64,000 bases of DNA from an uncultured Solobacterium sp. (GTDB lineage: Bacteria; Bacillota_I; Bacilli_A; Erysipelotrichales; Erysipelotrichaceae), in the NCBI GenBank assembly GCA_938039295.1, contig CALHUY010000052.1, forward strand, positions 1,196 to 65,195. The letters run 5' to 3'. Numbering within the stretch: the first letter of the stretch is position 1; the number at the start of each line of letters is the position of its first letter. Made by a program: the position numbers and the translations under genes. Shown here piece after piece: positions 30,698-60,414 of this stretch. The notes beneath the pieces were generated by a model. That model was given only the letters and a program-made list of their open reading frames with translations. It was not told the DNA's origin and made no database searches.

Positions 30698-31638
30698 TAC
30701 TTGTTATCCTTTTCTTCTAAATCCGCATCTGTTAATCTCTCTAGAACCATTGTCTCAGATAGATTTTCAGATGGTTTCTGATCTAACTTTTCAATATCAC
30801 TATCTGTTAATTTTTCCAATACCATGGTTTCAGATAGATTTTCTTCAGAATGAGACTTCTTGTTTTCTACAACTTCTGTTTCAACAGCCTCTTCTGTACT
30901 GCTATCTAAAGTAATATCTAAACTTTGAATCCATCTCTTACCAACACCTGTTTGTGCAAATTGTTCTAGCATTGGCTTTAGTTCTTCTTGTTGATCAAAC
31001 TTCGCTTGGTCTTGATAAATCTTATAAAGTGTAGCATTTGCGAGATTCTTATAAATACCAATCATCGTTCTAGAATAGATATATCCTTCATAGTCACCTT
31101 CAAGTAACTTTTCAAAGAATGTCTGACCACGGTCATCTATTGAATCATAATATTTATCAAGCTGGTCTGATAATGCCTTTGCAAGTTGATTTCCTAATAA
31201 TTCTTCATATGGTTGTAACTTTGCATGCATGGTTGCACGTAAATCATCTCTACCAATATGATGTAATACATTTGGAATTGCTAGATATAAATAGAAGAAT
31301 GAATCTTCATTTGTGTCGATTGACTTAACACCCTTCTTATCTTCAATTAAAGAATCGATATCTAGTTCTTGTAATGTAGTATCAAATTCATGAAAGTCTT
31401 GGTGATATGCACATCCCCAAAGTTTTAATACACGTCCTTTATTGGCAAATTCTGGATCATTTACTGTTGAAATTAATTGATCCACGCGGTTAAAGAACAT
31501 CTCCTTCTCATTGATTAAGCGCACTGCATCAATAATCATCTTATTTTTTCCGTTACGCTTTGAAGATATAAACATCTTAATAATTAAATATGCCATTGCA
31601 ATATACATTGCGAATGTTACAAATCTTGCTGGGTTCAT
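30697..31638 (-). CDS. hypothetical membrane-anchored protein with C-terminal tandem acidic repeats (ENLSETMVLE[KR]LTD[SA]D[IL]E...)
   Basis: N-terminal TM helix. Two ~22-aa repeats at the C-terminus. Start/stop overlap with pth (ATGA). Confidence 0.55.
   Translation of the reverse strand: MNPARFVTFAMYIAMAYLIIKMFISSKRNGKNKMIIDAVRLINEKEMFFNRVDQLISTVNDPEFANKGRVLKLWGCAYHQDFHEFDTTLQELDIDSLIEDKKGVKSIDTNEDSFFYLYLAIPNVLHHIGRDDLRATMHAKLQPYEELLGNQLAKALSDQLDKYYDSIDDRGQTFFEKLLEGDYEGYIYSRTMIGIYKNLANATLYKIYQDQAKFDQQEELKPMLEQFAQTGVGKRWIQSLDITLDSSTEEAVETEVVENKKSHSEENLSETMVLEKLTDSDIEKLDQKPSENLSETMVLERLTDADLEEKDNK
30722..30860. repeat. imperfect direct repeat (~66 bp x2) encoding the ENLSETMVLE..LTD repeats
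   Basis: ...ccattgtctcagatagattttcagatggtttctgatc... repeated as ...ccatggtttcagatagattttcttcagaatgag... Confidence 0.6.
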
Positions 31639-31770
31639 ATTTTTCCCTCCCGTACTTATCTATATATTATACAGAAATATCCTAGACTTGTTCAAAATTT
31701 GCGAATCATTTGTTATATGGTAAAATACCTATACATTATCTAATGTATACATATATAAAGGAAAAACGTT

Positions 31771-32547
31771 ATGGAAAACGAAAAGAAGATAAAAACGAAA
31801 TTTCTCAGTGTTCCTACACTGCTTAAATTCTTATTACTAGTATCTGTATGCTTATTCTGCGTAGCGCTCTACGTCAATAGTCATCCAGAGTTATTAAAGA
31901 AGACAACACCTACTCCAGAGCCTACGGCAACTGCTTCTACAGTAGAGCCAACTGCATCTGCTTTACCAGCCCATTTAACAGATCCAAACAGCGTTACAGT
32001 ATTGGTTGATAAAAATCACTCCCTTTCACGTGACTTCGTTCCTGCAAATCTAGCTTCTCCGTATTTACAGAGTACTGCAGATGTAATTCAAATTCGTCAG
32101 GACGTTGGTGATGCGGCTAAATCTATGATTTCTGCTGCTGAAGCTGCTGGTATTAAACTTTATGTTACAGCTGGATACCGCTCTTATGATGAACAACAGA
32201 CACTTTATGAAGACCGTGTTAGTAAGTTAGGTGAAAAAGAAGCCTCTGATACAACTGCTAAAGCAGGTTATAGTGAAAATCAGACAGGTTTAGCACTCGA
32301 CTTTACAGATACAGCGACTGGTACAAGTTCTGTAGACTTCGCAAATACACCTGCTGGTAAGTGGTTATATGAAAATGCACATAATTATGGATTTATCCTA
32401 CGTTATCCTGATAAGAAGCAGGATATTACAGGATATAGCTATATGCCATGGCATTACCGCTATGTTGGAACAGATGTTTCTAACGCAATGTATGAACAAG
32501 GTGGCGCTAATTTAACATTTGAAGAATTTTATCAGATAACAAAGTAG
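31771..32547 (+). CDS. membrane-anchored D-alanyl-D-alanine carboxypeptidase, peptidase M15B (VanY-like), second paralog
   Basis: TM anchor, T/P/A-rich linker, and the same GYSYMPWHYRYVG catalytic region as 15367-16152. Confidence 0.8.
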   Translation: MENEKKIKTKFLSVPTLLKFLLLVSVCLFCVALYVNSHPELLKKTTPTPEPTATASTVEPTASALPAHLTDPNSVTVLVDKNHSLSRDFVPANLASPYLQSTADVIQIRQDVGDAAKSMISAAEAAGIKLYVTAGYRSYDEQQTLYEDRVSKLGEKEASDTTAKAGYSENQTGLALDFTDTATGTSSVDFANTPAGKWLYENAHNYGFILRYPDKKQDITGYSYMPWHYRYVGTDVSNAMYEQGGANLTFEEFYQITK

Positions 32548-32570
32548 AAAATCTCTACTTTGTTTTTTTG
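32542..32570 (+). terminator. rho-independent terminator (AAGTAGA-aaatc-TCTACTT + T7)
   Basis: Stem-loop overlapping the stop codon, followed by TGTTTTTTT. Confidence 0.65.
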
Positions 32571-32619
32571 TTTGTGTGTAATTTTCTATAATTCTTTTTC
32601 ATCTATTTTCATTCTAGCG

Positions 32620-32650
32620 TTGACATTTTTCACTTCAAAAAGTATTATTT
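32620..32650 (+). promoter_or_regulatory. candidate rpmH promoter (-35 TTGACA 32620-32625; -10 TATTAT ~32644-32649)
   Basis: Consensus -35 and an 18-nt spacer to a TATTAT hexamer, ~45 nt before rpmH. Confidence 0.4.
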
Positions 32651-32692
32651 ATGAGCATATGTTCAATATATAGTAATTTGGAGGTGGCATGA

Positions 32693-32827
32693 ATGAAGAG
32701 AACATACCAACCAAGCAAGAAAAAGAATAAAGCTACACACGGCTTTAGAGCCCGTATGGCTACTGTGGGTGGACGTAAAGTTATCAACAGACGTAGAGCT
32801 AAGGGAAGAAAGGTCTTATCTGCTTAA
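32693..32827 (+). CDS. rpmH: 50S ribosomal protein L34 (44 aa; absent from the ORF track because <60 aa)
   Basis: Hand translation [55 protein letters not shown] 6 nt upstream. Canonical rpmH-rnpA-yidC-jag synteny. Confidence 0.95.
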
Positions 32828-32828
32828 G

Positions 32829-32852
32829 AAGCCACCATTGGTGGTTTTTTTC
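32829..32852 (+). terminator. partial terminator/attenuator between rpmH and rnpA (GCCACC-att-GGTGG + T7)
   Basis: Short stem followed by TTTTTTT. Confidence 0.5.
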
Positions 32853-32870
32853 TTACTGTAGAGGTTAGAG

Positions 32871-33203
32871 ATGAAAGTAAAGAATCGAATTAAAAAAGCG
32901 GAAGAATTTCAATCCATGATCAAAAAGGGGGCAAAGATTGTAAATCAATCCTTTGTCATCTATTACGGACAAAAAGACGATGATGAGGCACGTATTGGTA
33001 TTTCTGTGTCAAAGAAGCTAGGAAATGCCGTACATCGCAATCTATATAAACGTCAGGTTCGTATGATGTGTCATGAATTAATTGATTTTAAAAACACAAA
33101 TCATGACTTGGTCTTGATTATCCGCTTTAACTATTCTTCTCTTAGCTATGAGGAGAATAAAAATAACTTGGAAAAACTATTAATAAAGGCTAAAATTAAA
33201 TAG
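32871..33203 (+). CDS. rnpA: ribonuclease P protein component
   Basis: Basic ~110-aa protein, MKVKNRIKKAEEFQSMIKKG..., immediately downstream of rpmH. Confidence 0.9.
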   Translation: MKVKNRIKKAEEFQSMIKKGAKIVNQSFVIYYGQKDDDEARIGISVSKKLGNAVHRNLYKRQVRMMCHELIDFKNTNHDLVLIIRFNYSSLSYEENKNNLEKLLIKAKIK

Positions 33204-33223
33204 TTGAAACATAAGGAGAAAAT

Positions 33224-34132
33224 ATGAAGTTTACCCCTCGTACAAAGAAACTACTTGCCTTAATGGCAATTGTGACAATCGTAGTGACAGCTACTGGTTG
33301 TACAGCTCCAAAGGATGCGAATGGACACATTATTTTGATTTCCAACACAACAACTTTTGGAGATATCTTCCAGTCTGAAAACTGGTTTAATGCATTATTT
33401 GTTTGGCCACTAAGCTGGGTACTTAACCACTTAGCACCAATTATCACTGTTGGTGGTGCAATCGCTGTCGTTACTGCGGTTGTAAATGGTTTACTTGCAG
33501 TCTTTACATTAAAATCCCAGATGAGTATGCAAAGAATGCAGATGTTACAGCCTGAATTAAACAAGATTCAACGTAAATACGAAGGCCGTGACGATCAAGC
33601 ATCTAAGATGCGTATGGCTCAAGAACAACAGCAGTTAATGAAGAAGTATGACGTTAACCCTGGTTCTATGATGTTAGTACAGTTCATTCAGTTACCTATT
33701 ATCATGGCTATGTTCATGGCTATCCAACGTGCAGAAGCCATTGTAAATGGTACATTCTTAGGAATGAACTTACAGGTTAAGCCTAGTGAAGCGTTTGGTT
33801 TATTATTTAAAGGTGATCTTAGTGGATTACCATATATCATCTTGTTCTTATTAATGGCTGTTACACAGGTAGTATTAGTATTATTACCAATATACTTCCA
33901 AAAGAAGAAGGCTGCGGCTGAAGCTGCCAAGCATCATCGTAAGCCAGAACCTACAAATAATCAGAACATGATGATGCAGATGTACATGATTGTTATGGTA
34001 CTTGCATTCGGTTTAATGTGGCAATCAGGTATGTCCTTATTCTGGTTCATTCGTAACATCGTAGATATTATTAAGACAATTGTTGTCCAAAATATCATGG
34101 AGAATAATTCACAGAAAGAAGGCTTAAGATAA
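33224..34132 (+). CDS. yidC: membrane protein insertase YidC/Oxa1 (lipoprotein type)
   Basis: Lipobox VTATGCT, five TM segments, basic C-terminal tail. Confidence 0.9.
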   Translation: MKFTPRTKKLLALMAIVTIVVTATGCTAPKDANGHIILISNTTTFGDIFQSENWFNALFVWPLSWVLNHLAPIITVGGAIAVVTAVVNGLLAVFTLKSQMSMQRMQMLQPELNKIQRKYEGRDDQASKMRMAQEQQQLMKKYDVNPGSMMLVQFIQLPIIMAMFMAIQRAEAIVNGTFLGMNLQVKPSEAFGLLFKGDLSGLPYIILFLLMAVTQVVLVLLPIYFQKKKAAAEAAKHHRKPEPTNNQNMMMQMYMIVMVLAFGLMWQSGMSLFWFIRNIVDIIKTIVVQNIMENNSQKEGLR

Positions 34133-34773
34133 TGCAAATCTATACTGCAAAAACACTTGAAGAACTTCTACAAAACGCTGCTGAAGAAAAGGGAGTTACA
34201 ATCGATGAATTAGAATATACAATTGTGGAAGAGAAAAAGGGATTATTAGGAATTGGTAATTCTGTATCCGCAAAGGTATTCTGTGCTGAAGATGTGAAGG
34301 AATTTATCTTTGACTACTTAGGTGAATTCTTTACACATATCGATTTAGATATTGAAGTAGCTTTAGAAGAATTAGATGATAGTTATGTCATCAATCTAAA
34401 TTCTGATAACAACGCTATTCTCATCGGTAAGATGGGTAAGACATTAGCTGCGTTCAATACAGTATTACGTGCTGCTGTAAACTCTGAATTTGAAAAGCGT
34501 ATCGATGTATTGATTGATATCAACCACTACAAAGAAGAGCGCTATCAAAAGATTCGTTCTATGGCAAAGCGTATCGCAAAACAAGTTCAACGTTCAAAGG
34601 TTGATGTAGTACTTGATCCAATGCCAAATGACGAAAGAAAAGTGATTCATAAGGTATTAGGTGATTGGCACAACATCAAGACAGAATCAGAGGGTGAAGG
34701 TAGTTACAGACACATCTGCATTCGTTATGTTTCCGATGAACCACAGGAAGAAATTCCAAATATGTCTGAATAA
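34132..34773 (+). CDS. jag: RNA-binding protein Jag/KhpB (KH + R3H domains)
   Basis: Jag N-terminal domain plus KH and a C-terminal R3H (VLDPMPNDERKVIHKVL). Overlapping start with the yidC stop. Confidence 0.85.
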   Translation: MQIYTAKTLEELLQNAAEEKGVTIDELEYTIVEEKKGLLGIGNSVSAKVFCAEDVKEFIFDYLGEFFTHIDLDIEVALEELDDSYVINLNSDNNAILIGKMGKTLAAFNTVLRAAVNSEFEKRIDVLIDINHYKEERYQKIRSMAKRIAKQVQRSKVDVVLDPMPNDERKVIHKVLGDWHNIKTESEGEGSYRHICIRYVSDEPQEEIPNMSE

Positions 34774-34802
34774 GAATTCCTTAATTGGAATTCTTTTTTT
34801 AT
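34773..34802 (+). terminator. rho-independent terminator (AAGAATTCC-ttaatt-GGAATTCTT + T7)
   Basis: 9-bp perfect stem plus T-run after jag. Confidence 0.75.
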
Positions 34803-34956
34803 TGTTGTATATAAAATTTCATAAAGTGAAATACTTATTACTTGTTTGAAAAAAATGATAGGTTTATAATTATTTTAGTGAAATTAATCACAAGTATTTA
34901 CCGGTGATACCTATGATAATTCCATATGATTTACTTTTAAAAAGGAGATAAATTTT

Positions 34957-36018
34957 ATGTCTGAAATGCAAAAGGAGACAGTAGGCTCATTCATTTTAAA
35001 GGTATTAAATGGTGCAACAATCGCAATTGTTGTAGCGTTAATTCCTAACGCAATTCTCGCAACTTTCTTAAAACCATTCGCTTCTAATCCATTATTTGCG
35101 AATTGGTTACACATCGTTCAAGTATTCCAATACTTTACACCATTAATGGCTGGTTATTTAATTTCGATGCAGTTTAAGTTAAATCCAATTCAATCTTCTT
35201 GTGTGGGTGGTGCAGCTTATATTGGTTCTGGAGCTTGGAAATTCGTTGAAGTAACGATGGATGGAAATGTTACAAACATCTTCCGTTTAGCAGGAATTGG
35301 TGATGTCATTAACACAATGTTAACAGCAGCTCTAGCAATTCTTGTGATTCGTTTAATCAGTGCTAAACTAGGTTCTCTTAATCTTGTATTCCTTCCAATT
35401 ATCGTTGGAACGGGTGTTGGTTGGGTAGGTACTTTAACACTTCCATATGTTTCTATGATTACTTCTCTAATTGGACAGGGAATCAATTCATTTACAACAT
35501 TACAACCAATTTTGATGAGTATCTTAATTGCGATGTCGTTCTCACTCATTATCATTAGTCCACTATCTACCGTTGCGATTGGTTTAGCAATTGGTTTAAC
35601 TGGTATCTCATCTGCTGCTGCAGGTATGGGTGTAGCTTCTGCTGCTGCTTTACTTGTATGGGCATGCGCTAGAGTTAATAAGCCTGGTGTTCCTATCGCA
35701 ATTGGTTTAGGAGCCATGAAGATGATGATGCCTAATTTCCTAACAAATCCTATTATTGGTTTGCCAGTTGCGATTACAGCCGCAATCAGTTCTCTCAGTG
35801 TTCCTATCTTCCAGATGGTTGGTACTCCAGCATCAGCAGGATTTGGATTTGTAGGACTTGTATCCCCATTAGCAGCACTCAATGCAGGAAATATCAATGT
35901 TGTGATTATGCTAGTTGCCTGGATTGTTGTGCCATTTGTAGTTGGCTTTATTGTAAATAAAGTATGTTGTGATGTATTACATCTTTATAAGAAAGAAATA
36001 TTTACATTCAAAGGATAA
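34957..36018 (+). CDS. polytopic membrane protein / putative permease, family not recognised (353 aa, ~10 TM)
   Basis: Highly hydrophobic and Gly/Ala-rich. Likely co-transcribed with panE (14-nt gap). Confidence 0.5.
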   Translation: MSEMQKETVGSFILKVLNGATIAIVVALIPNAILATFLKPFASNPLFANWLHIVQVFQYFTPLMAGYLISMQFKLNPIQSSCVGGAAYIGSGAWKFVEVTMDGNVTNIFRLAGIGDVINTMLTAALAILVIRLISAKLGSLNLVFLPIIVGTGVGWVGTLTLPYVSMITSLIGQGINSFTTLQPILMSILIAMSFSLIIISPLSTVAIGLAIGLTGISSAAAGMGVASAAALLVWACARVNKPGVPIAIGLGAMKMMMPNFLTNPIIGLPVAITAAISSLSVPIFQMVGTPASAGFGFVGLVSPLAALNAGNINVVIMLVAWIVVPFVVGFIVNKVCCDVLHLYKKEIFTFKG

Positions 36019-36032
36019 AGGAGGAAAACAAA

Positions 36033-36956
36033 ATGTTTGTTTATATCGCAGGTGCAGGTGCAATGGGTTGCCGCTTTGGCTATCAATTACATAAAGCAGG
36101 AAATGAAGTTATTTTATTGGATATGTGGAAAGAACATATTCAGGCAATTAAAAATGATGGCTTAAAGATTGTTGGTGATACAGAGGATTGTGTCAAGATG
36201 ACTATCATGGAACCAACAGAAGCCACAAAAGAAGCTGAATTAATTATCTTATTTACAAAGGCTATGCAACTGCCAACAATGTTACAAAATATCAAGCAGA
36301 TTATTGGTAAGAATACAAAAGTACTTTGTTTATTAAATGGCTTAGGTCACGAAGATGTGATCAAACAATATATCCCTGAAGAAAATATCTTAATGGGTGT
36401 TACTGTATGGACGGCAGGATTAAAGGGTCCAGGTGTAGCGAAACTTATCGGTAAAGGTTCTGTAAATCTACAATCTATCGATAAGAATGGTGAAGAAGCT
36501 GCTAAGAAGATTGTGGAAGTACTAAATCAAGCAGATTTAAATGTAACTTATGATGAAGATGTATTACCATCTATTTGGCGTAAGGCTTGTGTTAATGGCA
36601 CAATGAACTCTACTTGTGCATTACTTGATTGTACAATTGGTGAATTCTTCTCTAGTGAAGAAGCTATCCGTGTCGTAGATACAATTATTCACGAATTTGT
36701 AATGGTTGGTGAAGCCACAGGTGTTAAATTAGATGAACAAGCAATTAAAGACTATGTTATGAAAACATCTGTAGCAGCAGCGGCACATTATCCATCAATG
36801 CATCAAGATCTCATCCAGAATCATCGTCCAACTGAAATTGACTACATCAATGGTGCAGTCGCTAAAAAAGGTGATTCCTTAGGCATTTCTACTCCGTATT
36901 GCCACATGATTACTGATTTAATTCATGCTAAGGAACATGTACTAAAGATTAAATAA
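36033..36956 (+). CDS. panE: 2-dehydropantoate 2-reductase (ketopantoate reductase)
   Basis: N-terminal Rossmann motif MFVYIAGAGAMGCRFGYQL. ApbA/PanE length and C-terminal domain. Confidence 0.8.
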   Translation: MFVYIAGAGAMGCRFGYQLHKAGNEVILLDMWKEHIQAIKNDGLKIVGDTEDCVKMTIMEPTEATKEAELIILFTKAMQLPTMLQNIKQIIGKNTKVLCLLNGLGHEDVIKQYIPEENILMGVTVWTAGLKGPGVAKLIGKGSVNLQSIDKNGEEAAKKIVEVLNQADLNVTYDEDVLPSIWRKACVNGTMNSTCALLDCTIGEFFSSEEAIRVVDTIIHEFVMVGEATGVKLDEQAIKDYVMKTSVAAAAHYPSMHQDLIQNHRPTEIDYINGAVAKKGDSLGISTPYCHMITDLIHAKEHVLKIK

Positions 36957-36961
36957 TGAAA

Positions 36962-36999
36962 GAATCCCTGTGTACAATGAAGTACACAGGGAATTTTTA
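36962..36999. terminator. bidirectional terminator (TCCCTGTGTAC-aatgaa-GTACACAGGGA + T-run)
   Basis: 11-bp perfect stem between convergent genes. Confidence 0.7.
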
Positions 37000-37233
37000 C
37001 TTTACATCTGTTGGTTTTGGATGATTTGGATTAAAGAAATGTGAATAAGAATTAAAACGAATAAAGAAATAAATGCAAACCATCACAATCATTACTGTCT
37101 CGAAGAGACGATTAAACATTTGCGGATCGTGGATATCAAAGAGAAGTGCTTTCAATAAACCTAATGGTAACGCTAGTAACCAAAGATACTGCTTTTTATC
37201 TTTGACAACGATCCAATTAAAGTAAGTTTTCAT
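36997..37233 (-). CDS. small hypothetical membrane protein (78 aa)
   Basis: ORF with two hydrophobic helices next to oriC. No family recognised. Confidence 0.35.
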   Translation of the reverse strand: MKTYFNWIVVKDKKQYLWLLALPLGLLKALLFDIHDPQMFNRLFETVMIVMVCIYFFIRFNSYSHFFNPNHPKPTDVK

Positions 37234-37349
37234 ACTTTTCTCCTAATTATATCCTTTCTAATTTCAATATATTACGAATTATATAGAATTCAAGCCTTTT
37301 TATATCATTTCTTGGGGAAAACTATCTGGTTTAATGTATATAGTAGTGG

Positions 37350-37670
37350 GTTATCAACAGCTTATTCACATCCCACAATCAGTGGTTATCCACAATTGTG
37401 GATAACTGTTGAAAACTTTAAATAATCCTTTATTTATCGCATTATTTTATAAACAATATTTTGTGTATAACCTATTTTTAAGAAAAGTTATCCACGATTT
37501 TTTTACTTATCAACATTGTTTATAACTTCTCCACATTTTTATCCACATCAAAATTTGTGGAAAACTGTGGAAAACCTTTATATTTCATACCTGTACTATA
37601 TTTTCTACATTGTTCAGTTGTGGATAAAAAAATTATCAACATTTTTACTATGGATTTATCCACAATTGAG
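37350..37670. other. oriC: oriC part 1: DnaA-box cluster upstream of dnaA
   Basis: Perfect TTATCCACA/TGTGGATAA at 37386-37394, 37397-37405, 37539-37547, 37619-37627, 37656-37664. One-mismatch boxes at 37363, 37488, 37557, 37567. AT-rich background. Confidence 0.9.
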
Positions 37671-37709
37671 TCTTAAAATAAGAGTGCGACTTAATAAAGG
37701 GGATTTTTT

Positions 37710-39083
37710 ATGGAGTACAGGAATGAACAATATTTGAAGGAAGTCTGGGATAAACTTCTTCAATATTTGAGTGATAACCAATTAGTTGATATTGTTATAA
37801 TTAATAATTTTTTTAAACCTTGTTTTTTGTATGCAATCACAGATGAAAAAGTGATTATTGTTGCGCCATCTATTATTAATAAACAAATTTTACAGAGCCA
37901 AAATAAAGAAATCGAAGCTTCTTTTATTGATATTTTAAATGTTGATCATAATTTCATTGTAGAAGTACTCTTGAAGAATGAATTAACAATCAATAAGGTA
38001 GTAACAACACCTATTTCTAAAATTGATACAAGTGACTTTGTTTCTTTGCCAATTCAAAAAGATCGTAATTTTGATAATTTCGTTGTTGGTGACTGTAATC
38101 GAGAGAGTCACGCTGCGGCATTAGCTTGTGCAATGAGTCCTGGTAAGTTTTTTAACCCTTTATTTATCTATGGTAATTCTGGTTTAGGTAAAACACATTT
38201 ACTAATGTCGATTGCCAATTATGTATTAAAAGAAGATCCTACAAAGAAGGTTTATTATACAGAATCTCTAAAATTTGTTGAAACTGTTGTTAATGCAATC
38301 AGAAATAATAAAATTGATGAATTTAAACAATATATGTATTCAGTTGATTTATTACTTGTTGATGATATTCAATTCTTAGCTGGTAAAGAAAAATCACATG
38401 AAGTATTCTTCACAATTTATAACGAATTAGTAAATAATCGTAAGCAAATTTGTATTGCGTCTGATCGTTTACCAAAGGAAATTAAAGGTCTTGAAGATCG
38501 CTTAATTAGTCGCTTCTCCAGTGGTTTATCTGTAGGTATCGATTCACCTGAATTTGAAACATCTCTTGCAATTCTTCAAATGAAGATAAAATCTAGTAGT
38601 TATTCCATCGAAGATGTTGATAAAGATGGATTAAATTATATTGCGTCTAACTTTTCAGGAAATGTCAGAGATTTAGAAGGTGCTTGGAATCGTGTATTAT
38701 TCTATGCAATTCAATTCCAACCAGATGGAGGATGTATTCGTTTTGATACGATTATGAATGCATTAAAGAATCAATCAGTTGTTTCTGATAAGACTGGTTT
38801 ATCTCCAAAGAAAATTATCAAAGTTGTCGCAGATTATTATGGATTAACAAGACAACAAGTTACTTCTAAAACACGTACAAAGAATATTGCGAATGCACGT
38901 CATATTTCTATTTATTTATGTCGTAAATTACTTGATATTTCTTATATTAAAATCGGTGAAGAATTTGGTGGTAGAGATCATTCCACTATCATTAGTGCAT
39001 GTACAAAAGTTGAATCACAAATTGCTAAGGACAAAGCAATGTCTGCAGCAGTAAAAGAAATAGAAGATTACTTAAAAGCTTAA
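37710..39083 (+). CDS. dnaA: chromosomal replication initiator protein DnaA
   Basis: AAA+ Walker A GNSGLGKTHL, Walker B LLLVDDIQF, sensor motifs, C-terminal DNA-binding domain (ARHISIYLCRKL). Confidence 0.95.
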   Translation: MEYRNEQYLKEVWDKLLQYLSDNQLVDIVIINNFFKPCFLYAITDEKVIIVAPSIINKQILQSQNKEIEASFIDILNVDHNFIVEVLLKNELTINKVVTTPISKIDTSDFVSLPIQKDRNFDNFVVGDCNRESHAAALACAMSPGKFFNPLFIYGNSGLGKTHLLMSIANYVLKEDPTKKVYYTESLKFVETVVNAIRNNKIDEFKQYMYSVDLLLVDDIQFLAGKEKSHEVFFTIYNELVNNRKQICIASDRLPKEIKGLEDRLISRFSSGLSVGIDSPEFETSLAILQMKIKSSSYSIEDVDKDGLNYIASNFSGNVRDLEGAWNRVLFYAIQFQPDGGCIRFDTIMNALKNQSVVSDKTGLSPKKIIKVVADYYGLTRQQVTSKTRTKNIANARHISIYLCRKLLDISYIKIGEEFGGRDHSTIISACTKVESQIAKDKAMSAAVKEIEDYLKA

Positions 39084-39085
39084 GT

Positions 39086-39225
39086 TATTCACAATTTTAT
39101 CCACTGTAAAATAACAGGTTACAATGCTAAAATAGTATCGTCATTAAAGGCTTTCTAAGAGTTTTCCACATTATCCACATACTTAATAAGAATAAATACT
39201 TAAAATACTTTAAATACACGGGAGA
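39086..39225. other. oriC: oriC part 2: DnaA boxes + AT-rich unwinding region between dnaA and dnaN
   Basis: TTATTCACA 39086, TTATCCACT 39097, TTTTCCACA 39162, perfect TTATCCACA 39171-39179, followed by ~40 nt of >85% AT. Confidence 0.8.
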
Positions 39226-39232
39226 AAAAAAT

Positions 39233-47044: not shown

Positions 47045-47275
47045 CGTTGATAGAGAATAGTAGTACAAAAGCATTTACAGAAAGGTAACGGATGATGTGA
47101 GTTGCCATTGTGATGTATGAATCCGCTCTTGAGTGAAACTAATACTTTCCGGTTGTCCCGTTATTGCTAATGAAGTGGTTAAATTGTTTCACGTGAAACA
47201 ATTTAACAAAAAGGGTGGCACCGCGTTGACATCGTCCCTTTGTTGGATGATGCTTTTTTATTTTTAGAGGAGAGG
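47045..47275 (+). promoter_or_regulatory. T-box leader (tRNA-sensing riboswitch) controlling serS
   Basis: Conserved T-box sequence AAAAAGGGTGGCACCGCG at 47207-47224 (consensus AAUUAGGGUGGNACCGCG). A terminator helix (AACAAAAAGGG...CCCTTTGTT + T-run) follows. Candidate Ser specifier UCC in ...ACUUUCCGG... at ~47145. Candidate promoter TTGACA 47003-47008. Confidence 0.75.
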
Positions 47276-48587: not shown

Positions 48588-48622
48588 AAAAGGATTGTTT
48601 CACGTGAAACAATCCTTTTAAA
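48588..48622 (+). terminator. serS terminator: perfect palindrome GGATTGTTTCAC|GTGAAACAATCC flanked by A4/T4
   Basis: 12-bp perfect inverted repeat centred on CACGTG. Shares the 18-mer TTGTTTCACGTGAAACAA with the T-box leader. Confidence 0.6.
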
Positions 48623-53638: not shown

Positions 53639-54535
53639 ATGGGATCAATTGCATATGTAACAGATGAAAATATGCTTGCATATCATCGCTTATGTAGAAA
53701 TCAATCGATACTCTTTTGGCGATTATCCAATAAGAAGTTTACGGATTTCCGTAAAGGAGATTTGCTGTTCTTCTTTGCAAGACCAAATCATGGACGTAAG
53801 AAAGCATTGATTGGCTATGCACATTATGATTCTGAAATAAATCTTTCACTTAAACAGATGTGGAATCGATATGGCGATTCCACTGGATACGACACACAAG
53901 ATGGGCTCTACGCAGCGATAGAAAAAGCATCTCGTGGCAATATACCGCCAAAGATGAATTGCTTATATCTAACAAACGTTGTGTTCTTCTTATCACCTGT
54001 CTATCCAGAAGATGTAGGTATTTCTATACAAAACAATCTTGAAAGTTATTGTTATCTAGATAAAGATAGTCCAAAGATAACTGCTAAGATTTTACAACAA
54101 GCACAAAAACACGGTATCGACCTATGGAGTGCGAATCCAAATATCACTCCAGAAGAAATCTTTAAAGAAGATGCCGCAAAACATTATCTAGCAGTCATCT
54201 CACAAGAGATTGGTCAAGATAGTGGAAATGAAAGACAACAACGTACGCTTGAAAAATATGCAAAACAGAAAGCGAAAGAATCTGGTTGGGAATTAATTCG
54301 TGGTAGTAATACAGAATGTATTCGTATGAATGGAACTGAAATACAAATTGCAATTCCGTTTGTATCACAAGTGAAAGAACAACCTCAGAAGATTCGAGAA
54401 TATATAGGAAGGCTAACGATGTATCGCTTGTTGGCCAAGCATCAGGGTTTGGAAGGCAAAATCAGATTTGAAATACTTTCCCCAAATATACCTGACGTAT
54501 TAAAGGAAATGGTGGAAGAAATAAACAATGAGTGA
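53639..54535 (+). CDS. hypothetical protein (298 aa), possible N-terminal PUA/EVE-like fold
   Basis: Coding ORF with RBS AGGAGG. KGDLLFFFARPNHGRKKALIGYAHY resembles the GDLVFFYHS core strand of EVE/ASCH/PUA-like domains. Overlaps the mnmG start by 8 nt. Confidence 0.5.
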   Translation: MGSIAYVTDENMLAYHRLCRNQSILFWRLSNKKFTDFRKGDLLFFFARPNHGRKKALIGYAHYDSEINLSLKQMWNRYGDSTGYDTQDGLYAAIEKASRGNIPPKMNCLYLTNVVFFLSPVYPEDVGISIQNNLESYCYLDKDSPKITAKILQQAQKHGIDLWSANPNITPEEIFKEDAAKHYLAVISQEIGQDSGNERQQRTLEKYAKQKAKESGWELIRGSNTECIRMNGTEIQIAIPFVSQVKEQPQKIREYIGRLTMYRLLAKHQGLEGKIRFEILSPNIPDVLKEMVEEINNE

Positions 54536-56402
54536 TTTTGATATTATTGTCATTGGCGGTGGTCATGCGGGTATTGAAGCTGCGCTGGCTGCTGCGCGAC
54601 TAAAAAAGAAAACCTGTCTTTTGACATTGAAGATAGAAAATATTGGAAAGATGCCATGTAATCCATCCGTAGGTGGACCGGCAAAAGGAATTGTTGTAAG
54701 AGAAATTGACGCCTTAGGTGGTCAAATGGCGATTACTGCCGATAAGACAGCGCTGCAATTCAAGATGTTAAATAGCGCAAAAGGTCCAGGTGTACGTGCA
54801 CTTCGTGTACAGTCAGATAAACTTGCGTATAAGCGTATGATGCAAGATATCTGTTTACATCAAGAAAACCTAAGTGTAATTGAAGGCATGGCGAGCAAAC
54901 TTAACGTAACTGACAACAAAGTTACAGGTATTACGTTAAAAGATGGAACTGTGATGAATGCCAAGATTGTGATTGTAACAACAGGCACATATATGGCAGG
55001 TGTAAATATGATTTCATCAGAAGTTACACCAGGTGGTCCAGATCTTGAACCAACGACAGGGGACTTATCAGAGTCTTTACGAGAGTTAGGATTAAAAACC
55101 TTCAGATTAAAGACAGGAACACCACCAAGAATCCTGCGTTCATCCATCGACTTTAGTAAAGTTAAATTAGAACCGGGTACAGAAGGATTCTTACATTTCT
55201 CAGAATTAACGACAAAAGAAGATGTATTACCATATGATAAACAAGTATCTTGTCATATGACCTATACAACCCCAGAAACACATGAATATATCTTAGGAAA
55301 TCTCAATAAATCCAGTATGTATTCTGGTGTCGTTAAGGGAGTTGGACCTCGTTATTGTCCATCTATTGAAGATAAACTTGTACGCTTCCAAGATAAACCA
55401 AGACATCTATTATTCTTGGAGCCAGAGTCACTAGAGTTAGATACCATTTACCTACAAGGATTCTCCACATCACTTCCAAGAGATATCCAAGAAAAGATGG
55501 TGCATTCATTACCGGGTTTCGAAAATGCAGTAATTAAAAAATATGCATACGCAATTGAATACGATGCAATCGATCCAATTCAAATGAAGCCAAGTTTTGA
55601 ATCAAAGGTGATTGAAAATCTATTTACGGCAGGTCAAGTAAATGGTACTTCAGGTTATGAAGAAGCTGCTGGTCAAGGACTACTTGCGGGAATAAACGCA
55701 TGTATGAAACTTGATGGAAAAGAACCACTTATTCTGGCAAGAAATGAAGCGTATATTGGAGTCATGGTTGATGATTTAACAACTAAGGGCACATTAGAAC
55801 CATATCGCTTATTAACATCACGTGCAGAGTTTAGATTGTTGTTAAGACATGATAACGCTGATCAAAGATTAATTGAATATGGACGCCAAGTTGGACTTGT
55901 CAGTCAAGAAAGATATGATGCATACCTTGAAAAGATGGAGAATGTGAAGAAGTTAATACAACATCTATCTGAAACAACATTCGTACAAGATGAGGAAAAG
56001 ATACATGCATACCTTACTTCATTAGGATATGAAAGTGATGCACATATTGGTATTAATGGAATTGATTTAGTAAAACGTCCAAATGTCACAACAAAGGAAC
56101 TTCTCGCTACAATTGGGGAAGAAGTTGATGAAGAAATTGCTAACCAGTGCGATATCGAACTAAAATATGCAGGCTATATTGATAAAGCAAAACGAGAAGC
56201 CAATAAGCTAAAAGAGATGGATGGTATAAAATTGGGTGTCGATTTCAATTATGATGAGGTTGATAACCTATCTATTGAAGGTAGACAGAAGCTAATGAAG
56301 TATAAACCAGCCACGATGGGACAGGCATCCAGAATTTCAGGTGTTAACCCAGCCGATATCGCAGTACTTGCGATTGCCATTAAACAAGGAAAAGGAAGAT
56401 AA
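54528..56402 (+). CDS. mnmG: tRNA uridine 5-carboxymethylaminomethyl modification enzyme MnmG (GidA)
   Basis: FAD motif IVIGGGHAGIEAA. 624 aa. Confidence 0.97.
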   Translation: MSDFDIIVIGGGHAGIEAALAAARLKKKTCLLTLKIENIGKMPCNPSVGGPAKGIVVREIDALGGQMAITADKTALQFKMLNSAKGPGVRALRVQSDKLAYKRMMQDICLHQENLSVIEGMASKLNVTDNKVTGITLKDGTVMNAKIVIVTTGTYMAGVNMISSEVTPGGPDLEPTTGDLSESLRELGLKTFRLKTGTPPRILRSSIDFSKVKLEPGTEGFLHFSELTTKEDVLPYDKQVSCHMTYTTPETHEYILGNLNKSSMYSGVVKGVGPRYCPSIEDKLVRFQDKPRHLLFLEPESLELDTIYLQGFSTSLPRDIQEKMVHSLPGFENAVIKKYAYAIEYDAIDPIQMKPSFESKVIENLFTAGQVNGTSGYEEAAGQGLLAGINACMKLDGKEPLILARNEAYIGVMVDDLTTKGTLEPYRLLTSRAEFRLLLRHDNADQRLIEYGRQVGLVSQERYDAYLEKMENVKKLIQHLSETTFVQDEEKIHAYLTSLGYESDAHIGINGIDLVKRPNVTTKELLATIGEEVDEEIANQCDIELKYAGYIDKAKREANKLKEMDGIKLGVDFNYDEVDNLSIEGRQKLMKYKPATMGQASRISGVNPADIAVLAIAIKQGKGR

Positions 56403-56405
56403 GAA

Positions 56406-57041
56406 ATGAAATACACAGATGTAGTATCAAACGTGAATGTCTATGGAATGGATTCGGCAGTTATGGGTTCAAAATATCCTATGGCAGTTGATTTAACAAA
56501 AGTAGATGGAACAATTGTTCCACGTACACACGCACTAGCAAACGCAAAACCAGGAAGTGGACATGATAACTTCTTAAATGGAATCATCGTACAGTTCGAC
56601 CTCACATTTACAAATAAGGCATGGGTTGAAGCAGAACGCTATCATTTCCTAGATTTTATTAGTTCACAGTCTACAATGCACCGTATCACAAAGTTCAACT
56701 TAGATGAGGTGTATATCTCTTATACAGATCCACGAATTATCGAAATCATGAAAGAAAAGGTTAATTCCTATAATGAATTAACACAGAAGATTTCTGATAA
56801 AAAAATAGCTGGAGAAGATGTAACAGAATTAAATGAAGAAGCGAAAGTAAAATATCTTGAGATTCTCTACTCTAATCCAGCAGGTTTTAGAATTACTGCA
56901 CGTATGACAACAAACTACCGTCAGCTCAAGACAATTTATGCGCAGCGCAAGACACATCGCTTACCAGAATGGCGTGCATTCTGCGATTGGGTAGAGACAT
57001 TACCTAACGCATCATTTATTGTAAATAGCGACTTAAAATAA
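56406..57041 (+). CDS. divergent ThyX-like (flavin-dependent thymidylate synthase fold) protein, 211 aa
   Basis: By eye: N-terminal VxVxxMGxDxAV block; His53 within GHDNFLNGIIVQF (positional equivalent of ThyX HETPFEHIVFTF); C-terminal ITARMTTNYRQLK...AQ parallels ThyX NARSLMNFLNLR...AQ. Canonical RHRx7-8S is degenerate (R78-Y-H80...S86/87). Assignment is inference. Confidence 0.5.
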   Translation: MKYTDVVSNVNVYGMDSAVMGSKYPMAVDLTKVDGTIVPRTHALANAKPGSGHDNFLNGIIVQFDLTFTNKAWVEAERYHFLDFISSQSTMHRITKFNLDEVYISYTDPRIIEIMKEKVNSYNELTQKISDKKIAGEDVTELNEEAKVKYLEILYSNPAGFRITARMTTNYRQLKTIYAQRKTHRLPEWRAFCDWVETLPNASFIVNSDLK

Positions 57042-57160
57042 GGCGTATCTACAATTTGTGGAAAACTATTTTATCCACAAATAATACAAAACATCTATAA
57101 ATTGTGGAAAAACAAACTATCCACAATTGTGGAGAAAAAAGTTATCAACATATTTTCATC
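57042..57160. promoter_or_regulatory. second DnaA-box cluster (non-oriC) upstream of rsmG
   Basis: TGTGGAAAA 57057, perfect TTATCCACA 57071-57079, TGTGGAAAA 57103, cTATCCACA 57117, TGTGGAGAA 57129, TTATCAACA 57142. Six boxes in ~100 bp. Confidence 0.75.
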
Positions 57161-57205
57161 TTTCACAGGGGACGTGATGGTGATAGAATAGGTCACACAG
57201 AGATT

Positions 57206-57904
57206 ATGACAATACAAGAACTCATAGAAAAAGCAGCAGAGCTACAAATTTCATTGTCAGAAACACAGGTGAAACAGCTTGAACAATACGCCCAACTTTT
57301 GGTTGAGTGGAACGAGAAAATGAATCTCACAGCCATCACAGAACATGGTGAAATCTTAGAGAAACATTTCTATGATTCTATATTGCCATTAGGAAAAGGG
57401 AAGATCTTTGGAAAAGTAGCAGATGTTGGAACTGGAGCGGGGTTTCCAGGGTTGGTTTGGAAAATCGTCAAACCAGAATTAGATGTGTCACTGATTGAAC
57501 CAACTGGGAAACGGTGCACATTCTTACAAGAAGTAATGAATCAACTGCATTTAGAAAACATCCATGTTTATAACACACGTGCAGAAGAACAGGTTAAAAC
57601 AGACCGTGAATTGTACGATGTGGTAACTGCTAGAGCAGTCGCAAACTTACGAGTCTTATCCGAATTATGCATTCCACTAGTCAAAGTAAATGGACTATTT
57701 CTAGCGATGAAGGGTATGCAAGGTAATGCGGAAGCGGAAGAAGCAGCACATGCGACCAAGGTGCTTGGTGTAGAGCTAGAAGAAACACAGGATACATCTT
57801 TATATACAGGAGATATGCGAGTGAACTTATACTACCGCAAAGTAAGTCACACGCCACAACAATATCCACGCAATTACGGGCAAATAAAAAAGAAGCCTTT
57901 ATAA
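57206..57904 (+). CDS. rsmG: 16S rRNA (guanine527-N7)-methyltransferase RsmG (GidB)
   Basis: MTIQELIEKAAELQISLSE... and the SAM motif VADVGTGAGFPGL. Real start set at ATG 57206. The ORF-track start 57104 reads through the DnaA boxes. Confidence 0.9.
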   Translation: MTIQELIEKAAELQISLSETQVKQLEQYAQLLVEWNEKMNLTAITEHGEILEKHFYDSILPLGKGKIFGKVADVGTGAGFPGLVWKIVKPELDVSLIEPTGKRCTFLQEVMNQLHLENIHVYNTRAEEQVKTDRELYDVVTARAVANLRVLSELCIPLVKVNGLFLAMKGMQGNAEAEEAAHATKVLGVELEETQDTSLYTGDMRVNLYYRKVSHTPQQYPRNYGQIKKKPL

Positions 57905-57915
57905 GGGAGGGTTAT

Positions 57916-58725
57916 ATGCCAAGTATTTTAAGTATATTTGATCGAAAAGATACAAATCGTATTGTAGATATCCCAACGGAAAAAATTGTTCCATCAAGAT
58001 ATCAACCACGATTAGTGTTTGATGAAGAAGCTTTACGTGAATTAGCACTATCAATTAAAGAGAATGGATTAATTCAACCAATTACAGTTCGAAAGGTGAA
58101 CGATATATACGAAATTATCACGGGGGAAAGAAGATTCCGTGCATGTAAGATGATTGGTTTTAAGGAAGTGCCATGTTACATCATGTCACCAAATGAAAAC
58201 CAGGCTGCACAGATGGCCCTCGTTGAAAATATCCAACGTGAGAATTTAACTGCCATTGAAGAAGCGAAAAGTTACTTACAAATCATGCGTCAATCTGGTT
58301 TAACACAAGAACAGGTTGCACAAAAAGTAGGTAAGTCACAATCTGCAGTAGCCAATAAGATTCGCTTATTAAATTTACCAATTGAAATTCAGGAAGCGGT
58401 CATGGAATCAAAGATTACGGAACGCCATGCTCGTGCACTATTGACGGTACCAAGCGATAGACAAAAAGAAGTGTTCCATCATATAGTCGCAGCTGAATTT
58501 AATGTAAGACAAACTGAAGATTTTATCGCAAGTCTAGATGATGTTCCTAAGAAGAAACATACACGTCAAAAGACAAAGGGTTTCTCAAGAAATACACAGA
58601 TTGCGGTAAATACAATTCATCAAAGTATCAAGATGATTCATAAAATGGGCATTCAAGCAAAAGTAGAAACGGAAGATAGACCAGACGAAGTATGCATGAT
58701 CATCCGTTTCCCGAAGAATTCATAA
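57916..58725 (+). CDS. noc: nucleoid occlusion protein Noc (ParB paralog)
   Basis: ParB box GERRFRAC, HTH, and Noc-specific C-terminal blocks (KITERHARAL, NVRQTEDF, FSRNTQIAVNTIHQS, IIRFPK) that parallel B. subtilis Noc. Confidence 0.85.
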   Translation: MPSILSIFDRKDTNRIVDIPTEKIVPSRYQPRLVFDEEALRELALSIKENGLIQPITVRKVNDIYEIITGERRFRACKMIGFKEVPCYIMSPNENQAAQMALVENIQRENLTAIEEAKSYLQIMRQSGLTQEQVAQKVGKSQSAVANKIRLLNLPIEIQEAVMESKITERHARALLTVPSDRQKEVFHHIVAAEFNVRQTEDFIASLDDVPKKKHTRQKTKGFSRNTQIAVNTIHQSIKMIHKMGIQAKVETEDRPDEVCMIIRFPKNS

Positions 58726-58737
58726 GGGAGAAGTATT

Positions 58738-59517
58738 ATGGGAAAGATCATTGCAATCGCAAACCAAAAGGGTGGTGTAGGTAAAACAACTACATCTATG
58801 AACTTAGCGTCAGGTTTATCATATATTGGCAAAAGAGTCCTATTAGTAGACTTCGATCCACAGGGAAATGCGACGCATGGTATCGGAGCACATAAAGTAG
58901 GTTTTGATAAGACGGTATACGACATCTTGATGAGAGATGAAAATGTAGAAGATGTAAAAGTTACACTACAAATGCCACCACTAGATGTACTACCATCAAC
59001 CATCGACTTATCTGGTGCAGATGTCGATATGGCACAATATGAAACGGGCCGTGAACAACTATTAAAGAGAAAACTAGAAGCGGTGAGAGATCAATATGAT
59101 TACATCATCATTGACTGTCCACCAGCACTAGGTTTGTTGAATACAAACGCGTTAACTGCAGCAGATTCTGTGATGATTCCGGTACAGTGTGAATACTTTG
59201 CGCTAGAAGGATTGACACAGCTATTAAGTACAATTCGTTTGGTTCAGAAATTATGGAATCCAAGACTATCTATCGAAGGCGTACTTCTAACAATGTTCGA
59301 CGTACGTACCAAGTTATCGGTAGAAGTACAACAGGAAGTACGTAAATACTTTAAGGAAAAAGTTTACCACTGTTTTATCCCACGAAATGTACGCTTATCA
59401 GAAGCTCCATCTCGTGAACAATCAATTTTTGAGTATGATACCCGTTCGGAAGGTGCTCGTGCTTACGCACAACTTGTAAAAGAAGTAGTTACACAAAACG
59501 AAAGGATCAAACGATAG
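58738..59517 (+). CDS. soj: chromosome partitioning ATPase ParA/Soj
   Basis: Deviant Walker A KGGVGKTTT. Confidence 0.95.
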   Translation: MGKIIAIANQKGGVGKTTTSMNLASGLSYIGKRVLLVDFDPQGNATHGIGAHKVGFDKTVYDILMRDENVEDVKVTLQMPPLDVLPSTIDLSGADVDMAQYETGREQLLKRKLEAVRDQYDYIIIDCPPALGLLNTNALTAADSVMIPVQCEYFALEGLTQLLSTIRLVQKLWNPRLSIEGVLLTMFDVRTKLSVEVQQEVRKYFKEKVYHCFIPRNVRLSEAPSREQSIFEYDTRSEGARAYAQLVKEVVTQNERIKR

Positions 59518-59520
59518 AAA

Positions 59521-60414
59521 ATGGCAGAAAAAAAACAAAAAGGCTTAGGACGTGGTTTAGATTCTATCTTCGGATCGAATGTAGAGCAGTTCCTTGACGA
59601 TATTCAAAGTAGCGCAAAGGAAGTGCCAGGCAGAAGAGAAGTAGAAATCGCAATTGAAGAAATTAGGCCAAATCCTTATCAGCCAAGAAAAGAATTTGAT
59701 CAAACTGCGTTAAATGAATTGGCAGATTCTATTCGTACACACGGAATCTTTACACCATTACTCGTACGCAAGAGTGTCAGTGGTTATGACTTAATCACTG
59801 GTGAAAGACGTTTGCGTGCTGCGAAGATTGCTGGACTTAAGGTTGTACCTGCAATTTCTGTAGATTTTACAGAAGAACAGATGATGGAAATTGCCATCTT
59901 AGAAAATGTACAACGTGAAGACTTAAACGCAATTGAAGAAGCCGCAGCCTATGACTCACTTGTAAAAAAACTAGGCTATACACAAGAAAAACTAGCAGAG
60001 AGAGTTGGTAAATCTCGTGAATATTGTGCAAATATTATGAGACTCTTAAAACTTCCTTCTGAGATTCAAAAATTAGTCGTAGATAAAAGACTAGCAATGG
60101 GACATGTTCGTCCATTACTGGGCTTAAAAGATGAGATGGAAATGCTTGATGCGGCTGAGAAAATCATGAAGGAAAAGATGTCTGTTCGTGAAGTAGAAGC
60201 CTACGTTAGAGATATTAATGCAGAAGAAGAAAAACCAAACAAAACAAAACCAGAAAAGAAACGTGACCCAATCATCCACGATTTAGAACATCAGATTTCT
60301 GTGAAGCTTGGCACGAAGGTAACAATTCAGAACAAGAAACTCACAATTCGATATACGGATACAGAGGATTTAAACCGTATCTTAGAGATATTGAATTGCT
60401 TGGATGAAGGCTAA
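59521..60414 (+). CDS. spo0J: chromosome partitioning protein ParB/Spo0J
   Basis: ParB box GERRLRAAK, HTH, C-terminal dimerisation domain. Confidence 0.95.
   Translation: MAEKKQKGLGRGLDSIFGSNVEQFLDDIQSSAKEVPGRREVEIAIEEIRPNPYQPRKEFDQTALNELADSIRTHGIFTPLLVRKSVSGYDLITGERRLRAAKIAGLKVVPAISVDFTEEQMMEIAILENVQREDLNAIEEAAAYDSLVKKLGYTQEKLAERVGKSREYCANIMRLLKLPSEIQKLVVDKRLAMGHVRPLLGLKDEMEMLDAAEKIMKEKMSVREVEAYVRDINAEEEKPNKTKPEKKRDPIIHDLEHQISVKLGTKVTIQNKKLTIRYTDTEDLNRILEILNCLDEG

Follow-up and report, generated by a model that had tools for sequence, protein, structure and literature searches.

A candidate DnaA operator array at the rsmG-noc-soj-spo0J promoter of a Solobacterium, built from an inverted-box module that recurs at the dnaA promoter

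The spacer upstream of rsmG in an uncultured Solobacterium sp. carries a dense array of predicted DnaA boxes, arranged as inverted pairs of a kind that recurs at the dnaA promoter. We judge it probable, at roughly 60%, that this is a DnaA operator array at the promoter of rsmG-noc-soj-spo0J, which would be co-regulated with dnaA, probably by repression. All coordinates refer to the window, the stretch of 64,000 nucleotides that was analyzed. Besides initiating replication, DnaA acts as a transcription factor, and both initiation and cell division are subject to feedback from Soj (ParA), Spo0J (ParB), and Noc. Most likely, the array ties the expression of chromosome-segregation genes to DnaA, as is known in Bacillus and Pseudomonas.

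Searching the window revealed six DnaA boxes with at most one mismatch to TTATCCACA within positions 57057-57150, one of them perfect, which agrees with the original prediction of about six boxes between a ThyX-like gene and rsmG. These are TTTTCCACA (57057-65, minus strand), the perfect TTATCCACA (57071-79, plus strand), TTTTCCACA (57103-11, minus), CTATCCACA (57117-25, plus), TTCTCCACA (57128-36, minus), and TTATCAACA (57142-50, plus). A weak box with two mismatches, GTATCTACA (57045..57053, plus), converges on the first of these across a 3-bp gap. The array is located in the 164-bp intergenic spacer between the open reading frame (ORF) at 56406-57041 and rsmG, the sole sizeable intergenic gap between dnaX and spo0J. 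The spacer reads GTATCTACA-ATT-TGTGGAAAA-CTATT-TTATCCACA-(23 nt)-TGTGGAAAA-ACAAA-CTATCCACA-AT-TGTGGAGAA-AAAAG-TTATCAACA, and the last box is followed by 11 nt, TTCACA, 16 nt, TGaTAGAAT, another 16 nt, and the ATG of rsmG. A search of the spacer against Rfam returned nothing close to thresholds.

The whole window contains 58 boxes with at most one mismatch, compared with 23 ± 4.5 expected. Leaving aside oriC and the rsmG site, a background of 31 such boxes in ~61 kb remains, from which the Poisson probability of finding at least six boxes in 112 bp is ~4e-11, or ~3e-6 across all window positions; together with shuffled sequences, these estimates rule out a chance cluster. In density, the array ranks second in the window after the cluster upstream of dnaA. 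Its Ishikawa A-value is 0.37, with successive quartets of boxes scoring 0.37, 0.35, and 0.31. The 2007 definition of a DnaA-box cluster by Ishikawa calls for at least four closely spaced boxes with at most one mismatch to TTATNCACA and an A-value above 0.3, and the array of predicted sites conforms to it in box number and A-value as well as in its intergenic location near oriC. In B. subtilis, the threshold of 0.3 set apart all eight DnaA-bound sites (PMC2533591). The distance to the oriC box clusters is 17.9-19.7 kb, close to the 18-20 kb first estimated, and the density, the A-value of 0.37, and the conservation in relatives described below all speak for a genuine non-origin DnaA-box cluster beside rsmG.

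On the plus strand, the window displays the order rnpA-yidC-jag, a PTS gene, panE, the oriC boxes, dnaA, and four boxes with an AT-rich stretch, then dnaN-recF-gyrB-gyrA, serS, tadA, dnaX-ybaB-recR, fhs, and a 298-aa ORF, and finally mnmG, a 211-aa ORF, the box array, rsmG-noc-soj-spo0J, and the atp operon. The 298-aa ORF (53639-54535) overlaps the mnmG start by 8 nt, had no match in Pfam, NCBIfam, or the PDB, and is conserved in Solobacterium and locus L008 (76-98% identity) and missing in L010. The gene mnmE, the usual partner of mnmG, is not found in the mnmG neighborhood. Two perfect parS sites (TGTTTCACGTGAAACA; 47185-47200 and 48596-48611) flank serS, 8-10 kb to the right of oriC; none was found inside the spo0J gene of the window. 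The spo0J gene of B. subtilis contains one parS site.

The 211-aa ORF between mnmG and the array (56406..57041, plus strand) is one of a large family without annotation, for which at least 8000 close homologues were counted, or 2658 representatives at 50% identity; it had no match of its own in Pfam, NCBIfam, or the PDB by sequence or profile. An AlphaFold model based on a deep alignment from a library-wide profile search reached a pLDDT of 95.9, compared with 49.6 for a shallow alignment. All top PDB fold matches of this model are the flavin-dependent thymidylate synthase ThyX (TM 0.55-0.67, 14-17% identity), so that the earlier label "ThyX-like" is borne out at the level of the predicted fold. 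The RHR motif of ThyX reads RYH in this protein. Because the gene sits with fhs and mnmG, both of which are folate/FAD-linked, the modeled protein, instead of making thymidylate, may depend on folate to modify nucleic acids. In L010, it is more conserved than RsmG (76% versus 60%).

Downstream of the array, rsmG (57206..57904, plus strand; PF02527, E 3e-53) encodes a 16S rRNA m7G methyltransferase and is followed after 11 nt by noc (57916..58725, plus), whose product, a nucleoid occlusion protein, contains the Pfam domains ParB_N and HTH_ParB and scores 319.8 against TIGR04285 (cut-off 315). Next come soj/parA (58738..59517, plus; PF13614 and PF01656) and spo0J/parB (59521..60414, plus). The gaps within this unit are 3-12 nt, and no plus-strand terminator was predicted within or after it. 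Since none was predicted between the ThyX-like gene and rsmG either, read-through transcription may also feed the operon. A longer rsmG ORF starting from a GTG at 57104 and running across the boxes was rejected: homology and the Pfam domain begin at the ATG at 57206, and the sequence upstream of it varies among relatives in a non-coding manner, with indels.

The best sigma-70-type match between positions 56300 and 58000 is a predicted promoter directly after the array (57162..57189, plus strand), with TTCACA as the -35 hexamer (57162-67), a 16-nt spacer, and the extended -10 element TGaTAGAAT (57181-89), matching 10 of 12 consensus positions in addition to the TG. This consensus prediction would place the start of transcription at ~57196. 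The original prediction had the boxes overlapping the rsmG promoter; they instead abut the predicted core promoter and end 11 nt upstream of its -35 hexamer. As shown below, this position next to the predicted promoter is conserved, as would be expected at a DnaA-regulated promoter.

The six boxes form three copies of a 23-bp module, TGTGGAnAA-N5-TTnTCmACA (TGTGGANAA-N5-TTNTCMACA in degenerate code), in which two boxes are inverted with their TTAT ends inward and separated by a 5-bp spacer. The distal pair 1, TGTGGAAAA-CTATT-TTATCCACA (57057..57079), is kept in nearly all Solobacterium sequences; pair 2, TGTGGAAAA-ACAAA-CTATCCACA (57103..57125), starts 46 bp after the start of pair 1; and the promoter-proximal pair 3, TGTGGAGAA-AAAAG-TTATCAACA (57128..57150), ends 33 nt before the -10 hexamer. 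Relative to the presumed start site, the three modules lie at about -139/-117, -93/-71, and -68/-46. A repeat search, performed independently of the pair analysis, returned a 27-nt unit at 57056, 57102, and 57127 (spacing 46 and 25) and a 34-nt unit at 57047-57080 and 57093-57126 that includes part of the weak box at 57045..57053; the twofold occurrence of the latter points to tandem duplication of the module. Inside the array, convergent junctions have gaps of 2-3 bp. One such junction, between pairs 2 and 3, is a 14-bp perfect palindrome, TCCACAATTGTGGA, consisting of two converging boxes 2 bp apart; it occurs at 57117-57136 and at 37386-37405 in the origin cluster upstream of dnaA.

Of all close box pairs in the window, four show the minus/plus arrangement with a 5-bp gap: three in the array and one at 37619-37641, in front of dnaA. 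The remaining origin boxes are arranged in other ways. The module never appeared in 30 shuffles of the window, and, with at most one mismatch allowed per box, none was found outside the regions upstream of rsmG and dnaA among the loci listed from a scan of ~0.9 Mb. An inverted repeat of a 9-bp half-site around a 5-bp spacer is also the typical shape of an operator for a dimeric helix-turn-helix protein, and the palindromes could in principle serve another transcription factor and merely resemble DnaA boxes. This is very unlikely, since the half-sites behave as DnaA boxes and the sequence of the spacer is free between relatives: the same 9-mer is enriched in other arrangements around dnaA, variation within the boxes falls at positions 1 and 3 while the TCCACA core is nearly invariant, and the other place where the module occurs is the very promoter of dnaA.

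At that promoter, the module TGTGGATAA-AAAAA-TTATCAACA (37619..37641) lies 32 nt before a TAAAAT -10 hexamer (37674-79) and upstream of the dnaA start at 37710. It is also found in loci L096-L099, whose DnaA proteins are 73-90% identical to that of the window, 31-32 nt before TAAAAT. One 23-mer, TGTGGATAAAAAAGTTATCAACA, is identical at the dnaA promoters of L096 and L098 and the rsmG promoters of L001, L002, and L006. We regard this identity as the strongest argument that both promoters answer the same protein in the same way.

The dnaA gene (37710-39083, plus strand) passed the equivalog model, and the 9-mer box is massively enriched on both sides of it. The upstream part of oriC (37351..37664) comprises 16 boxes with at most one mismatch, and the downstream part (39085..39232) comprises four boxes (39085-39179) and then, ahead of dnaN, an AT-rich stretch of 53 bp containing AGTATTT repeats (39180-39232), which, judging by its sequence, is likely the unwinding element. 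A short minus-strand ORF with a good ribosome-binding site (37010-37233) ends just left of the origin boxes. In domain IV of DnaA (38757-39080), compared with the E. coli structure, R399, D433, and H434 are kept, and three of the six base-contacting residues, as listed in PMC2533591, differ from E. coli (P423I, T435S, and H439S). The oriC boxes indicate that the consensus still holds despite these changes. The Solobacterium lineage has an unusually high share of boxes with T or C at position 3, and one may speculate that this reflects the changes in DnaA. The genes rpmH-rnpA-yidC-jag lie upstream of dnaA on the same strand, both in the window (31000-37700) and in L096-L099; the usual arrangement in Firmicutes, unlike this one, is divergent. 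The minimum of the cumulative GC skew coincides with a switch in gene strand at ~31-32 kb, ~5.5 kb to the left of the cluster upstream of dnaA.

It is exceedingly improbable that the array beside the gid genes is a second replication origin or the relic of an ancestral one, the latter of which had been proposed as an alternative. Such a role has precedents, as DnaA-box clusters beside gidA serve as origins in gamma-proteobacteria, and oriCII of P. aeruginosa, upstream of gidA, supports plasmid replication (PMC13438810). However, no AT-rich unwinding element, repeat array, or array of TAG/TAA trios follows the last box of the array; the 55 nt after it consist of the promoter and a G-rich stretch, in contrast to the 53-bp AT-rich repeats between dnaA and dnaN. 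The GC skew is uniformly positive from ~32 to 64 kb, without a change of polarity at the array, and the array is not adjacent to dnaA, which has box clusters of its own. In all relatives examined, the oriC boxes likewise surround dnaA. A relic should also decay, yet conservation is stronger in the boxes than at third codon positions, the module has been duplicated, and in L058 the boxes have stayed with rsmG despite an inserted upstream gene.

This conservation could be followed both within Solobacterium and far beyond it. RsmG proteins from eight Solobacterium metagenome-assembled genomes are 95-97% identical to that of the window. A loss of the cluster in close relatives, which had been named, in combination with a lack of phenotype on deletion, as counting against its significance, is not seen: 4-6 boxes are retained in 18/18 distinct Solobacterium sequences. 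In these 18 sequences, the mean pairwise diversity is 0.074 for the boxes, 0.14 for the 5-nt spacers inside pairs, 0.31 between pairs, and 0.243 for all non-box positions within the array, compared with 0.17 (0.14-0.21) for third codon positions of the two flanking genes; the extended -10 element is invariant (0.0). The boxes are thus less variable than both the non-box array positions (Mann-Whitney p = 2.7e-4) and the third codon positions (p = 6e-4), p-values that are indicative only, as related sequences and neighboring positions were treated as independent. From the pattern of sequence variation, the predicted boxes are under purifying selection within Solobacterium.

To cover wider relatives, we fetched 80 metagenome loci using the 211-aa ORF as an anchor. 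Wherever rsmG follows this ORF, a copy of the module is found upstream of rsmG. It is present in L008 (82% RsmG identity) and in L035, L037-L041, L045, L051, and L058 (55-65%); in L010, L027, L029, and L031, the second box is weakened or degenerate, and L010 has lost ~18 nt of the spacer. The TGnTAnAAT element upstream of rsmG is conserved as well, and wherever a locus has both elements, from 100% down to 55% RsmG identity, the proximal module ends 32-34 nt before the -10 hexamer. Between one and three copies of the module occur per lineage, many relatives having only one pair. There are two copies in L051 and three in L037, L038, and L041, the first two of which are spaced 46 bp start to start as in Solobacterium. 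In L058, where another gene is inserted after the 211-aa ORF, the module is still with rsmG, and no boxes were found in L011, L012, L026, and L028, in which rsmG has other upstream neighbors and no such promoter. As the module follows rsmG, keeps its register, and varies in copy number, it belongs to the rsmG promoter, and the comparison of these loci marks the predicted element as an old one, copies of which were gained or lost in different lineages.

The fixed register suggests how DnaA, which we infer to occupy the array, could control rsmG-noc-soj-spo0J. The unit of action would be the 23-bp inverted-box module, one copy of which, at about -68 to -46, lies directly upstream of the -35 hexamer in the zone where the alpha-CTD of RNA polymerase or an UP element would dock; two more copies, presumably from tandem duplication, would carry the array out to about -150. 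Bound to the proximal module and stabilized by cooperative binding to the distal ones, DnaA would then modulate initiation at the rsmG promoter. A fixed register argues for such action on RNA polymerase, by occluding or contacting the alpha-CTD/UP zone, rather than for mere storage of DnaA, and the recurrence of the identical module equally far from the dnaA promoter suggests that the nucleoid-occlusion and ParABS operon is co-regulated with dnaA. Repression when DnaA is abundant is, on our analysis, the most likely direction, because dnaA is autoregulated (to our knowledge, dnaA promoters are autorepressed wherever studied) and the trmE-mnmG-rsmG-noc operon of B. subtilis is repressed. Boxes upstream of, rather than over, the core promoter are compatible with repression or with activation, as at p1 of P. 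aeruginosa; DnaA of that species activates gidAB-parAB from upstream boxes, so that activation is also conceivable in Solobacterium.

Titration-type loci such as datA of E. coli and the yydA-yycS and ywcI-vpr clusters of B. subtilis suggest another role. The array could primarily titrate or inactivate DnaA and, being duplicated early, delay re-initiation, with any effect on rsmG incidental; the original prediction had called such a sink plausible. The six to seven boxes with an A-value of 0.37, their early-replicated location just 18-20 kb away from oriC, and a pair number that varies from one to three between lineages, as if capacity were tuned, are all in line with a sink, and origin-proximal clusters do restrain initiation in B. 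subtilis (PMC3245932). A sink, however, needs no fixed promoter register, yet 32-34 nt to the -10 hexamer have been held across deep divergence; the single pair in many relatives offers too few sites; and the same module at the dnaA promoter points to promoter control. Nor does the jag-thdF cluster of B. subtilis serve well as an analogue of a sink: alone, it did not rescue over-initiation (a ratio of 1.30, compared with 1.35 for the mutant lacking six clusters; PMC3245932, Table 1), and it is a transcriptional operator of thdF-gidA-gidB-noc (PMC2533591). Titration as the main function therefore fits the evidence less well and seems unlikely to us; it is plausible as a secondary effect, since six or seven origin-proximal sites would hold some DnaA as a by-product of the operator function. 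DnaA control of rsmG-noc-soj-spo0J, which the original prediction had also raised, is favored by the register of 32-34 nt and the module at the dnaA promoter.

A bolder form of the operator reading, which we put forward tentatively and at somewhat less than even odds, is that, in this clade of Erysipelotrichaceae, the module is a dedicated promoter-type operator of DnaA (TTAT ends inward, 5-bp spacer, 31-34 nt before the -10 hexamer), distinct from the arrangements at the origin. It would then define a minimal regulon of dnaA(-dnaN) and rsmG-noc-soj-spo0J that locks synthesis of the initiator to that of ParA, ParB, and Noc, with one to three copies tuning operator strength and DnaA buffering. 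If true, an operator common to both promoters would be a simple hard-wired link from initiation potential to the segregation and occlusion machinery, in a setting of poorly studied, medically relevant oral and gut Firmicutes. With its fixed geometry, the pair would also be a clean test case for how the orientation and spacing of boxes determine whether DnaA acts as a regulator or opens an origin. In practical terms the gain is modest, as B. subtilis and P. aeruginosa have already provided the principle.

That a non-origin DnaA-box cluster can be the operator of an rsmG/noc or gidAB-parAB operon is already known. What is new is the lineage (in the literature searched, we found no paper on origins or DnaA boxes of Erysipelotrichaceae), the grouping of soj-spo0J and noc into a single DnaA-linked unit of a Firmicute, and the conserved inverted-pair module in fixed register that is common to the dnaA promoter.

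Like datA and DARS of E. coli, the array is a small non-origin DnaA-box cluster, and the inverted pair of DARS has the same 5-bp spacer (PMC6868365), which might suggest a site that reactivates DnaA through ADP release at oppositely oriented boxes. In a DARS core, boxes I and II stand head to head with their CACA ends inward across 5 bp, and box III is in tandem with box II, as in E. coli DARS1, TTATCCACT-ATTCC-TGTGGATAA-CCA-TGTGTATTA (NC_000913.3). The array pairs match this core in spacer length, but their polarity is reversed, with the TTAT ends inward, so that the AAA+ domains would not meet head to head as proposed for ADP release (PMC6868365); its convergent junctions have gaps of 2-3 bp rather than 5. 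A DARS-like function, which would also leave the fixed promoter register unexplained, is hence highly improbable. The array further differs from datA and DARS in its fixed association with a promoter, and we found no evidence at the array of the IHF- or Fis-type sites of those loci.

One of the closest parallels is the jag-thdF (trmE) cluster of B. subtilis, which DnaA binds in vivo and in vitro and from which it weakly represses thdF-gidA-gidB-noc (trmE-mnmG-rsmG-noc) (PMC2533591, PMC4447404, PMC8203912). Both clusters are intergenic, lie outside but close to the origin, head an operon with rsmG and noc, and have similar A-values (0.48 in B. subtilis and 0.37 in Solobacterium). In contrast to B. 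subtilis, the operon is split in Solobacterium, with mnmE absent nearby and mnmG and the ThyX-fold gene upstream of the array, and the proposed controlled unit, rsmG-noc-soj-spo0J, includes ParA and ParB. The Solobacterium array is also a repeated inverted-pair module in fixed promoter register and common to the dnaA promoter, and it is kept across wide Erysipelotrichaceae-like relatives, whereas that of B. subtilis lacks conservation even among Bacillus species (PMC2533591).

A second parallel is oriCII of P. aeruginosa, where DnaA binds boxes upstream of gidA and directly regulates gidAB-parAB, which couples initiation to segregation (PMC13438810). Here, too, a non-origin cluster lies beside gid genes and is linked to an operon with rsmG (gidB), parA, and parB. 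In P. aeruginosa, however, 130 bp separate the -35 hexamer from the nearest box, DnaA activates the operon, and a plasmid can use the region as its origin, whereas in Solobacterium the nearest box is 11 nt from the predicted -35 hexamer and there is no unwinding element. The two lineages are distant and their box architectures unrelated. A further parallel is autoregulation at the dnaA promoter, where, in the window and four relatives, the same module lies at the same distance from the -10 hexamer; at dnaA, it is the last element of the large upstream cluster of oriC, and at rsmG, it forms a self-contained array.
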